This document shows positions 1 through 1,996 of a DNA stretch of 1,996 bases, in pieces. Under the pieces are notes generated by a model, which saw only the letters and a list, made by a program, of their open reading frames with translations, was not told where the DNA came from and ran no database searches. The stretch is from Escherichia coli (GTDB taxonomy: Bacteria > Pseudomonadota > Gammaproteobacteria > Enterobacterales > Enterobacteriaceae). The stretch is from assembly GCF_003334405.1 (NCBI RefSeq), contig NZ_QOWM01000041.1, one strand, 5' to 3'. The position numbers and the translations under genes were made by a program. Position 1 is the stretch's first letter. Each line of letters starts with the position of its first letter.

Positions 1-810
1 AACCAGATGGACCCGGTGTACACGCCGGCGCGAAAAATCCACCTGTACCACTGCGACCATCGCGGCCTGCCGCTGGCGCTTGTCAGCACGGAAGGGGCAA
101 CAGAATGGTGCGCAGAATACGATGAATGGGGCAACCTGCTGAATGAAGAGAACCCGCATCAGCTGCAGCAGCTTATCCGCCTGCCGGGGCAGCAGTATGA
201 TGAGGAGTCCGGCCTGTATTACAACCGCCACCGCTATTATGACCCGCTGCAGGGGAGGTATATCACTCAGGATCCGATTGGGCTGAAGGGGGGATGGAAT
301 TTTTATCAGTATCCGCTGAATCCGGTTCAGTATATAGATTCAATGGGACTGGCATCAAAATATGGACACTTAAATAATGGCGGATATGGAGCGAGACCCA
401 ACAAACCGCCTACGCCCGATCCAAGTAAATTGCCGGACATAGCGAAACAATTAAGACTGCCATATCCTATTGACCAGGCCAGTAGTGCGCCTAATGTTTT
501 CAAAACATTCTTCAGAGCATTAAGCCCTTACGACTACACACTGTATTGCAGGAAGTGGGTAAAACCAAATCTGACTTGTACGCCACAGGATGATTCCCAG
601 TATCCAGGGATGGATACAAAGACAGCAAGTGATTACCTGCCACAGACAAATTGGCCAACAACTCAATTACCACCAGGATATACTTGTGCAGAACCCTATT
701 TATTCCCAGACATTAATAAACCCGATGGGCCAGCAACAGCAGGGATAGATGATTTGGGTGAAATTTTAGCTAAGATGAAACAGAGAACATCGAGAGGAAT
801 AAGAAAATGA
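1..810 (+). CDS. ybfO: Rhs-family protein, 3' portion only (5'-partial; reading frame is open from base 1, so the ATG at 7 is an internal Met). Contains the end of the RHS repeat-associated core and a 152-aa variable C-terminal (CT) toxin domain of unknown activity; possibly an orphan Rhs core-CT fragment
   Basis: Translation carries the hallmark end-of-core motifs of Rhs proteins: [76 protein letters not shown] is at nt 226-246, DPIGL at 271-285 and the terminal DSMGL at 337-351. Composition switches from GC-rich to AT-rich at about nt 290-350, as expected at an Rhs core/CT junction. Stop TGA at 808-810. The symbol is from memory of the K-12 RhsC-region gene order and was not verified by search. 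Confidence 0.9.
223..351 (+). other. Rhs core/CT boundary: putative aspartyl-protease autoprocessing region ([21 protein letters not shown] ... [10 protein letters not shown]), with predicted release of the CT domain after Leu115 (nt 349-351)
   Basis: Seen in sequence: two D-x-x-G-L motifs 22 residues apart, DPIGL (aa 89-93 of the ORF-track numbering) and DSMGL (aa 111-115). Established knowledge: in Rhs and Tc-toxin RHS cages a PxxxxDPxGL motif marks the C-terminal autoproteolysis site, and the variable toxin domain starts immediately after it. The conserved Pro is replaced by Ser here. Confidence 0.7.
352..810 (+). other. Variable C-terminal (CT) toxin domain of the Rhs protein, 152 aa, Pro-rich, 3 Cys, no motif I can assign to a known toxin family
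   Basis: Sequence downstream of the DSMGL motif is AT-rich and shows none of the core consensus, as expected for a polymorphic-toxin tip. I could not find HNH-type, PD-(D/E)xK-type or deaminase-type motifs by eye. Confidence 0.6.
792..798 (+). promoter_or_regulatory. Shine-Dalgarno (GAGAGGA) for the immunity gene, lying inside the 3' end of the Rhs CT coding sequence; indicates translational coupling
   Basis: Purine-rich GAGG/AGGA core with an 8-nt spacer to ATG 807; start and stop codons overlap. Confidence 0.55.
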
Positions 811-863
811 AAAGAGTTTTGTTCTTTTTGCTGATGATATTTGTTAGTTTTGGTGTTATAGCT
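807..863 (+). other. Signal peptide of the putative immunity protein (aa 1-19, predicted SPase I cleavage after VIA)
   Basis: KR at positions 2-3, then a 13-residue hydrophobic stretch [13 protein letters not shown], then small residues at -3 and -1 (V-I-A). Not a canonical lipobox because Asp sits at -1 relative to Cys21. Confidence 0.6.
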
Positions 864-1376
864 GATTGCGAAATACAAGCTAAAGATCATGATTGTTTTA
901 CTATTTTCGCTAAGGGTACTATTTTTTCCGCGTTTCCTGTCTTAAATAATAAAGCCATGTGGAGATGGTATCAGAATGAGGACATCGGTGAGTATTATTG
1001 GCAAACAGAACTGGGTACATGTAAAAATAATAAATTCACACCAAGCGGGGCGAGACTCTTAATTCGCGTCGGGTCACTACGCCTTAATGAAAATCATGCC
1101 ATCAAAGGAACGTTGCAGGAGTTGATAAATACAGCAGAAAAAACGGCGTTTCTCGGCGATCGGTTTAGAAGTTATATAAGAGCGGGTATCTATCAAAAAA
1201 AGAGCAGTGATCCAGTTCAGTTGTTGGCAGTCCTTGATAATTCAATCATGGTAAAATATTTTAAAGATGAGAAACCAACTTATGCTCGAATGACAGCACA
1301 TCTCCCGAACAAAAATGAGTCTTACGAATGTTTAATAAAGATACAGCATGAACTAATTCGTAGTGAAGAGAAATAA
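807..1376 (+). CDS. ybfC: Putative Rhs immunity protein, 189 aa, with a predicted Sec signal peptide (exported, probably periplasmic)
   Basis: ORF starts at ATG 807 and overlaps the upstream stop by 4 bp (ATGA at 807-810), with a GAGAGGA Shine-Dalgarno 8 nt upstream. This is the classic position of an immunity gene directly 3' of an Rhs CT. N-terminus [19 protein letters not shown]|DC has a basic n-region, hydrophobic core and V-I-A cleavage site; the mature part has 4 Cys. AT-rich like the CT it follows. Stop TAA at 1374-1376. The symbol is from memory of an E. coli K-12 189-aa secreted protein and was not verified. Confidence 0.8.
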
Positions 1377-1458: not shown

Positions 1459-1616
1459 CAGGGAAAGATCACGTAACGCTACTTTTTTGTACTAAATAAT
1501 TCGAATTTTAAGTTCAACAATTGAGATACTACTTATTGTCTAAAGCTGTTTTTCATAGCTTATACATGATCAAATACTCCTTACATAAATAAGGTGAACA
1601 AATGGAACTTAAAAAA
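1459..1616 (+). repeat. Direct repeat copy 1 (pairs with 1839-1996; period 380 bp)
   Basis: Hand alignment at offset 380: 150 of 158 identical. All 8 mismatches fall at 1504, 1511, 1515, 1518, 1529, 1531, 1538 and 1539. Confidence 0.9.
1591..1596 (+). promoter_or_regulatory. Shine-Dalgarno (AAGGTG) for the H-rpt transposase ORF; an identical site recurs at 1971-1976
   Basis: AAGGTG with a 5-nt spacer before ATG 1602. Confidence 0.5.
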
Positions 1617-1856
1617 TTGATGGAACATATTTCTATTACACCCGATTACAGACAAGCCTGGAAAGTGGTGCATAAATTGTCAGATATTCTACTGTTGACT
1701 ATTTGTGCCGTTATTTCTGGTGCAGAAGGTTGGGAAGATATAGAGGATTTCGGGGAAACACATCTCGATTTTTTGAAGCAATATGGTGATTTTGAAAATG
1801 GTATTCCTGTTCACGATACCATTGCCAGAGTTGTATCCCAGGGAAAGATCACGTAA
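1602..1856 (+). pseudogene. ybfQ: Truncated H-repeat-associated (ISAs1-family) transposase, N-terminal fragment (84 aa); the last 5 codons (QGKIT) and the stop come from the repeat junction
   Basis: AAGGTG Shine-Dalgarno at 1591-1596 and ATG at 1602. Homologous sequence ends at codon 79 (nt 1838), exactly where the second copy of the upstream leader begins; the frame then reads into that leader and stops at TAA 1854-1856. Full-length proteins of this family are several-fold longer. The symbol is from memory and was not verified. Confidence 0.75.
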
Positions 1857-1996
1857 CGCTACTTTTTTGTACTAAATAATTCGCATTTTATGTTTAAAAA
1901 TTGAGATATTCCTTATTACCTAAAGCTGTTTTTCATAGCTTATACATGATCAAATACTCCTTACATAAATAAGGTGAACAAATGGAACTTAAAAAA
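1839..1996 (+). mobile_element. Second H-rpt copy, 5' end (leader plus start of transposase ORF), continuing beyond the window
   Basis: 150 of 158 positions identical to 1459-1616, including the SD and ATG, with the last 76 bp identical. Confidence 0.75.
1839..1996 (+). repeat. Direct repeat copy 2 (pairs with 1459-1616); truncated by the window end
   Basis: Same alignment as copy 1. The repeat is still perfectly matching at the last base of the window, so it almost certainly extends further. Confidence 0.9.
1982..1996 (+). CDS. ybfL: Start of the next H-repeat-associated transposase ORF (MELKK...), 3'-partial, runs off the window
   Basis: ATGGAACTTAAAAAA at 1982-1996 is identical to the start of the 1602 ORF and is preceded by the same SD (AAGGTG at 1971-1976). 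Only 5 codons are visible, so whether it is intact cannot be judged. The symbol is from memory only. Confidence 0.5.

Follow-up and report, generated by a model that had tools for sequence, protein, structure and literature searches.

The principle of a brake that acts on an insertion sequence by occluding the Shine-Dalgarno (SD) sequence of its transposase gene is already well known from several elements. One case is IS200, in which a stem-loop in the 5' UTR of tnpA sequesters a near-perfect SD sequence and blocks binding of the 30S subunit, as was demonstrated by toeprinting and by mutations in the stem (PMC4513863). In ISPpu9, too, secondary structure of the mRNA leader is reported to restrict the translation of the transposase (PMC8450116), and for IS10 and IS50 the promoters are Dam-sensitive (PMC4265352). 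Almost nothing has been published on the control of the ISAs1 family. This family includes the H-repeats attached to the Rhs and O-antigen loci of Escherichia coli and Salmonella; in E. coli the family is represented by the H-repeat, also called ISEc1. A literature search returned no description of an SD-occluding leader hairpin of this kind for ISAs1, and Rfam holds no such family.

In this work we analysed a stretch of 1996 bases from E. coli (hereafter the window), in which a short hairpin had been noticed over the ribosome-binding site of a transposase gene, together with the leaders of related elements. The practical message for the window itself is modest: the two copies of the element are defective, their hairpin is degraded, and its annotation as a regulatory RNA is unneeded.

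The RhsC tail and its two H-repeat copies

The window has 100% matches to many E. coli chromosomes and, by the RefSeq and K-12 annotation, represents the end part of their RhsC locus, carrying an Rhs toxin tip, ybfC and two defective copies of an ISAs1-family element (H-rpt/ISEc1); the features are collected in Table 1. The Rhs fragment shows the core-end motif followed by a variable C-terminal tip, and the start of ybfC overlaps its stop codon by 4 bases (ATGA), so that both genes display the usual arrangement of a toxin tip plus immunity. At all three Rhs loci of K-12 the H-repeat is found downstream of the rhs genes and on the same strand.

The sequence-only reading had called the gene behind the hairpin a transposase, and the annotation bears this out, given that RefSeq labels ybfQ as an ISAs1-family transposase lacking the C-terminus. 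The open reading frame aligns with the N-terminus of YdcC/YhhI, and its homologues carry PF01609 and PF13808, as is characteristic of ISAs1-type DDE transposases, of which the window has a fragment only. Both copies start with a terminal inverted repeat of the CAGGG type, and this left end, CAGGGAAAGATCACG, is common to ISEc1 and its relatives. The right terminal repeat (IRR) of ISEc1 is CAGGGCAAGATTACG, with equivalent ends across the ISAs1 family; no right end of an ISAs1 element occurs inside the window. Copy 1 is 380 bp long and stops at position 1838, abutting the left end of copy 2.

In K-12, copies 1 and 2 differ at 21 of these 380 positions and are identical between element positions 82 and 180, the stretch that contains the hairpin and the start codon. 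Within the 158 nt that both copies share in the window there are eight differences, all clustered at 1504-1539; in this patch copy 2 agrees with ISEc1 and copy 1 does not, which suggests a mosaic or a gene-conversion event. Two other signals were recorded in the same region. One is a terminator-like hairpin, TCGGGGAAACACATCTCGA, followed by TTTTTT at 1750-1768 (+), inside the N-terminal coding part of the transposase; the terminator scan gave three such sites in the window, with 1.5 expected. The other is the best promoter-like site of the window, TAAACA-16-TATAAT (10/12), located at 1442-1415 (-), immediately beyond the left end of the element and directed away from it.

Table 1. Features of the 1996-base window; positions are counted from its first base.
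Feature	Position	Strand	Basis or remark
Orphan Rhs core-plus-toxin-tip gene, 3' part (ybfO-like)	7-810		RefSeq and K-12 annotation
ybfC	807-1376		RefSeq and K-12 annotation
Left terminal inverted repeat (IRL) of H-rpt copy 1, CAGGGAAAGATCACG, GATC at 1467-1470	1459-1473	+	Start of direct repeat
Conserved leader block TGATCAAATACT, -10-like (TGn + TCAAAT) with Dam site	1567-1578	+	Last two bases begin the 5' arm
5' arm CTCCTTA (anti-SD)	1577-1583	+	Sequence, RNAfold, covarying helix; T1578 mismatched
Hairpin loop cataaa	1584-1589	+	Sequence, folding
3' arm TAAGGTG (SD)	1590-1596	+	TAAGGAG in intact elements
ybfQ, N-terminal 84-codon fragment of ISAs1-family transposase	1602-1856	+	ORF list, RefSeq annotation
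IRL of H-rpt copy 2, CAGGGAAAGATCACG, GATC at 1847-1850	1839-1853	+	Direct repeat
Leader block TGATCAAATACT, copy 2	1947-1958	+	Direct repeat, covariance-model match
Hairpin of copy 2: 5' arm 1957-1963, loop 1964-1969, 3' arm/SD 1970-1976	1957-1976	+	
Second transposase copy, first five codons (ybfL pseudogene in K-12)	1982-1996	+	Truncated by window end

The hairpin in the window and in intact E. coli copies

The same 16 nt, CCTTA/cataaa/TAAGG, are present at 1579-1594 and at 1959-1974, exactly as the sequence-only reading had reported. It was also correct in that the 3' arm overlaps the SD sequence: AAGGTG, at 1591-1596, ends 5 nt before the ATG at 1602 (the ATG of the second copy is at 1982), so that one arm of the helix covers the SD at a functional distance from the start codon. 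The hairpin had further been presented as conserved in both copies. The identity is real; nevertheless, it carries no weight as independent evidence, because the two sites are recent paralogues of one insertion sequence.

The structure obtained with RNAfold consists of the CCTTA/TAAGG stem and one additional C-G pair (1577/1596) across a T.T mismatch. Taken alone the hairpin reaches -2.3 kcal/mol, a value equalled by 14 of 200 shuffled sequences; in contexts of 41 to 81 nt it reaches -3.5 kcal/mol, with z values from -0.35 to +0.25 and between 67 and 119 of 200 shuffles as good; over all the folds of the window version, z ranged from -0.5 to +0.25. Perfect 5-bp stems with loops of 3-8 nt are also common in this DNA, 16 in the window versus 14.5 +/- 4.6 in dinucleotide shuffles, and 8.6% of the shuffled upstream sequences yield some 5-bp hairpin over this SD. 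The stability of the window hairpin is thus not clearly above background, as opposed to that of the intact relatives ISEc1 and yhhI, and would hardly suffice to compete with 30S binding. A folding check around the start codon had been put forward together with the original proposal, and with a stem energy at the level of shuffled sequences the window fails it on those terms; in contrast, the accompanying remark that a stem so short and AT-rich would have a weak effect was right for both copies, in which GGAG has become GGTG and the genes are defective. The hairpin of the window exists, but it is probably too weak to matter much. A search with the Rfam covariance models yielded nothing relevant for the window (E<=10) and nothing at all for seven related loci (E<=1). 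An intrinsic terminator was considered as well and rejected, since neither strand has a run of T after the stem; the hairpin is not listed by the terminator scan.

A different picture is obtained with the intact H-rpt genes of 378 codons' worth of protein (378 aa), namely yhhI, ydcC, L002 and L091, since all of them have a perfect 7-bp stem, CTCCTTA/TAAGGAG. Their leader reads CTCCTTA-N6-TAAGGAG-aacaaa-ATG in yhhI and ydcC of K-12, in ISEc1 of strain THO-015 and in an O157 copy. In another copy (L090) the stem extends to 9 bp, TTCTCCTTA/TAAGGAGAA, and in ybfD, where the 5' arm is CTTCTTA, pairing is kept by a U.G wobble. The leader hairpins of ISEc1 and yhhI reach -8.0 kcal/mol (z of -2.5 and -2.2, respectively, and from -2.2 to -4.6 over all the folds) and that of ybfD -5.1 kcal/mol, versus -3.5 kcal/mol for the window. 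The stems are broken in the pseudogenes L003 and L006. The form TAAGGTG, with a spacer one base shorter, was found only in the defective copies linked to RhsC (window, K-12 and L089), and the intact genes have TAAGGAG; therefore, on this comparison, the version in the window is the derived one, in which a single A-to-T change (GGAG to GGTG) weakens the stem and the SD together. Read in this way, the window hairpin is a mutated remnant of a stronger hairpin that many ISAs1 elements carry over the ribosome-binding site of their transposase gene. The sequence CUCCUUA corresponds to the last 7 nt, at the 3' end, of the E. coli 16S rRNA, and the 5' arm is therefore an exact intramolecular mimic of the ribosomal anti-SD.

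A leader helix and a promoter-like block across the ISAs1 family

A scan of one genome per species provided 80 ISAs1 loci from many phyla, with 40-98% amino-acid identity to YdcC, in which the start codons were placed by tblastn. Nearly all the gammaproteobacterial leaders follow one plan: TTTGACC, 15 nt, GATC-NN-AT-N-CT, the 5' arm, a T-rich loop, the 3' arm, 5-7 nt and the ATG. The arms vary from element to element yet stay complementary, with pairs such as CTCCC/GGGAG, CTCTC/GAGAG, CTTCC/GGAAG, GCTCCTA/TAGGAGC, TCTCCT/AGGAGA, CTGTC/GACAG, CTGCTT/AAGCAG and CTGGCT/AGCCAG. The 3' arm of these relatives is GGGAG, AGGAG or a similar sequence, and it ends 5-7 nt before the ATG, at the position expected for the SD. 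Distant members of the family also have a strong stem beside the ATG (GGGAAAC/GTTTCCC, GAGAAAC/GTTTCTC, TTCCGAAT/ATTCGGAA and CCTTATAT/ATATAAGG). Across elements both the arms and the loop, of 4 to 9 nt, are variable, a pattern that would fit an RNA helix better than a protein-binding site.

The leaders are also more structured than expected. Forty per cent of 53 non-redundant leaders fold better than 95% of their dinucleotide shuffles, with a mean z of -1.54. When 43-nt segments at nine offsets were compared in 52 non-redundant elements, only the one from -40 to +2 was excessively structured (mean z -1.53, 42% with p<=0.05); the other eight gave mean z values between -0.5 and +0.2, with 2-13% of the elements at p<=0.05. 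A slight excess was found as well in the pairing probability of positions -14 to -5, 0.62 versus 0.56 in composition-matched shuffles of the upstream part (Wilcoxon p = 0.004); since a pyrimidine-rich composition alone pairs with the purine-rich SD, this value is to be taken as a caveat and not as support. In the cyanobacterial members L044, L045, L050, L053, L055 and L057 the region ahead of the start codon is no more structured than expected (z about 0), and the hairpin is therefore not universal in the ISAs1 family. In two marine members (L015 and L017, 1155-1220) the SD hairpin sits within an additional outer helix, UUGUGAUC/GAUCACAA, which extends as far as the AUG, with energies of -20 to -22 kcal/mol; here the bases immediately preceding the AUG are paired with the GATC region, much as in the read-through RNA of IS50.

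A covariance model of the leader motif was built from seven sequences. In 181 kb searched on both strands it gave 40 matches, almost all of them just upstream of a transposase ATG and on the coding strand; ISEc1 scored 30.3 bits, and the copies of the window 17.4 bits (E = 0.27; the match in copy 2 covers 1947-1977). A plain MAFFT alignment of 24 leaders left the 3' arms out of register because the loops differ in length, and it was replaced by an alignment made with the covariance model. In this alignment, whose fit to the model is a caveat for all the values that follow, 87% of the paired cells are complementary versus 72.2 +/- 1.5 in shuffles, the two-sided changes number 36 versus 11.5 +/- 3.1, and the covariation score is 0.431 versus 0.181, with slid controls not exceeding 0.19; none of 500 shuffles reached the observed figure in any of the three cases. 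The same helix was predicted by RNAalifold. Compensatory changes are thus found among the relatives, in an alignment fitted to the model, and they are confined to part of the helix. The inner three pairs vary on both sides while staying complementary, with 7, 11 and 12 distinct sequences; the outer two (C-G and T-A) never covary, and coincide with the conserved ATNCT block and with the AG of the SD. The counts of G.U and A.C for the transcribed strand, 3 versus 2, do not tell the strands apart.

From these results, the idea that an RBS-sequestering structure lies over the start of the transposase gene is supported for the family, on account of the stems of 7-9 bp, the compensatory changes and the excess structure at -40 to +2, and barely so for the copies in the window.

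Directly 5' of the hairpin, the leader block (TGATCNNATNCT) holds the second GATC of each copy. The pattern GATC-NN-AT-N-CT is closely tied to this place, given that 42 of its 49 occurrences in 258 kb fall at -45 to -25 of a transposase ATG, and in 18 of 24 leaders TTGAC is located exactly 16 nt upstream of the GATC. Together these signals have the geometry of a candidate promoter, with a -35 TTGACN, a 17-bp spacer and an extended -10, TGn-TCNNAT, in which the second position, normally essential, is a C. In the H-rpt lineage of E. coli the TTGAC of the -35 is lacking, with TGTTTT in its place. A sigma-70 scan of the leader gave no promoter, because the proposed -10 has no A at position 2. The literature search returned no experiment and no start-site data for any ISAs1 element, and neither start sites nor expression data for ydcC, yhhI or ybfD, the mentions of which in the text were exclusion lists.

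The other GATC of each copy is that of the left terminal repeat. In members from Enterobacterales, Vibrionales, Aeromonadales and Alteromonadales the left repeat has the form CAGGG..AGATC.., and the right one ..AGAGC.. or ..AGATTACG, neither of which contains GATC; in other phyla the left and right ends of the element share one sequence, CAGGGCAA(A/G)CGCAT. The presence of GATC in the left repeat only suggests, by analogy with the inner ends of IS10 and IS50, that the left end may be under Dam control.

Proposed mechanism, alternatives and comparison with known systems

The reading that we favour, with a probability of about 0.7, is that the hairpin of the window derives from a leader hairpin characteristic of ISAs1 elements and has been weakened by mutation; this reading includes the sequestration of the SD and an arrangement that would respond to read-through. 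A conserved and covarying helix with a variable loop over the SD would be best understood as an RNA that competes with the 30S subunit. In intact elements an anti-SD is located a few bases upstream of the SD (CTCCTTA in ISEc1), and in RNA this segment would pair with TAAGGAG; the 30S subunit would then have to compete with the intramolecular duplex, and the translation of the transposase would therefore be held down. The promoter-like signals adjoin the 5' arm on its upstream side and extend into it. Transcription beginning 6-8 nt beyond the -10 hexamer would probably start inside or after that arm, and the mRNA of the element itself would have a free SD. The full hairpin would be present only in transcripts read in from outside, in this case from the rhs and ybfC genes located upstream on the same strand, and the position of the promoter-like element suggests that it may form only in such transcripts, as in IS10 and IS50. 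Given that the H-repeat lies downstream of rhs on the same strand, read-through is plausible.

In the window, the change from GGAG to GGTG removes one pair, so that a helix of 5 + 1 bp at -3.5 kcal/mol is left, and weakens the SD as well; with the genes of both copies defective, any local effect is probably minor. In the MS2 system, de Smit and van Duin reportedly found in 1990 that translation is little affected by hairpins weaker than about -6 kcal/mol and falls about tenfold with each further -1.4 kcal/mol. On this scale ISEc1, at -8 kcal/mol, would be repressed and the version in the window hardly at all.

Several other explanations have to be weighed against this one. The hairpin of the window could be a chance structure without function, that is, a short AT-rich inverted repeat duplicated only with the whole insertion sequence. 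Its energy, the number of comparable stems (16 versus 14.5 expected), the 8.6% of shuffles that give a stem covering the SD, the defective state of both host genes and the paralogy of the two copies all agree with this idea; nevertheless, every intact E. coli copy that was checked has a perfect stem of 7-9 bp at the same position, and a covarying helix occupies that position across the family, from which it follows that the stem of the window descends from a conserved structure. Chance is thereby excluded as its origin. As regards what the stem does in the window today, chance is still a reasonable description, since the stem may be functionally inert there, a condition compatible with the favoured reading; as a full account, chance is unlikely. 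A somewhat less doubtful proposal, although still an unlikely one, is that transcription starts upstream of the 5' arm, so that the hairpin would be part of every transposase mRNA, as in IS200. It would then act as a constitutive attenuator, with a constant damping of translation, or as a 5' stabiliser that protects the 5' end from RNase. The conservation and covariation of the helix speak for this proposal too, and IS200 provides the precedent (PMC4513863); moreover, the proposed -10, with its C at position 2, is not canonical and a -35 is missing from the E. coli lineage, so that transcription could in fact begin at another site. On the other hand, in 18 of 24 leaders the same 17-bp spacer separates TTGACN from TGn-TCNNAT, and the promoter-like block rigidly adjoins the 5' arm, which would place a start 6-8 nt after the hexamer in the arm or in the loop.

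An element acting at the level of DNA would be either a palindromic site for the N-terminal domain of the transposase or for a host factor, or only the product of overlapping constraints from promoter and SD. The outer two pairs, which never covary and fall in the ATNCT block and in the AG of the SD, could be accounted for in this manner; the leader block does contain a Dam site, and the wobble counts do not identify an RNA strand. What makes this explanation improbable is that the inner three pairs change on both sides and are still complementary, and that the loop of 4-9 nt is unlike an operator with two fixed half-sites; because loop length varies and the arms covary, an operator is unlikely. 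In addition, the right end of the element lacks the motif, and the U.G pairing of ybfD would be a mismatch in DNA. Least credible of all, we consider it very improbable that the hairpin is an RNA thermometer, a short A-U-rich stem that would melt with heat and couple translation to temperature. The stem of ISEc1 does occlude the SD with four A-U pairs and -8 kcal/mol, which is within the range of known RNA thermometers, but most stems of the family are G-C-rich (CTCCC/GGGAG), some outer helices reach -20 kcal/mol, and no thermometer family of Rfam matches.

Returning to the favoured reading of a weakened hairpin that would respond to read-through, a broader and more tentative proposal can be built on it. 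In Dam-positive Gammaproteobacteria, ISAs1 elements might have a three-part safeguard similar to those of IS10 and IS50, formed by an extended -10 promoter with a Dam site (TGATCNNAT), a Dam site in the left repeat and never in the right one, and an anti-SD/SD hairpin split by the transcription start, which would silence only read-through transcripts. The window would then be, just as tentatively, a decayed example of it. If this were true, transposition would be tied to the passage of the replication fork and insulated from host transcription. An SD hairpin beside a promoter-like block with a Dam site would give ISAs1 the logic of self-restraint of IS10, IS50 and IS200, and the same arrangement would explain how copies of the element can reside directly downstream of transcribed rhs genes without being activated.

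IS200 and ISAs1 both have a hairpin in the transposase leader directly over the SD; the block to 30S binding was demonstrated in the former and would be expected in the latter. The IS200 structure differs from that of ISAs1 in several respects: its long stem spans nt 69-138 and is part of the native transcript, it acts together with an antisense sRNA and Hfq, and it precedes an unrelated transposase. ISPpu9 also departs from ISAs1, as it employs two sRNAs and belongs to a different family.

The comparison with the fold-back inhibition of IS10 and with the read-through transcript of IS50 (Tn5) extends to more components. The three elements have DDE transposases, and they share a weak promoter near the left end with GATC in the -10 region, which in ISAs1 is a candidate promoter. 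The hexamer of the T1 promoter region of IS50, TCTGAT, verified in the IS50 sequence, overlaps Dam sites and fits the TCNNAT of the ISAs1 block. When the IS50 RNAs were folded, with the T1 start at the position reportedly given by Krebs and Reznikoff in 1986, the long leader RNA formed a structure covering the AUG region with an energy of -14.7 kcal/mol, as against only -4.0 for the short RNA. Neither the antisense RNA of IS10 nor the inhibitor protein of IS50 is evident in ISAs1, and its transcription start, Dam sensitivity and translational effect are, as compared with those of IS10 and IS50, predictions from sequence. The core helix of ISAs1 is a compact anti-SD/SD hairpin with a loop of 4-9 nt, whereas the pairing in IS10 and IS50 is longer and irregular; in these two elements it is the externally transcribed sequence that pairs with the translation initiation region, and the ISAs1 leader would be its predicted counterpart.
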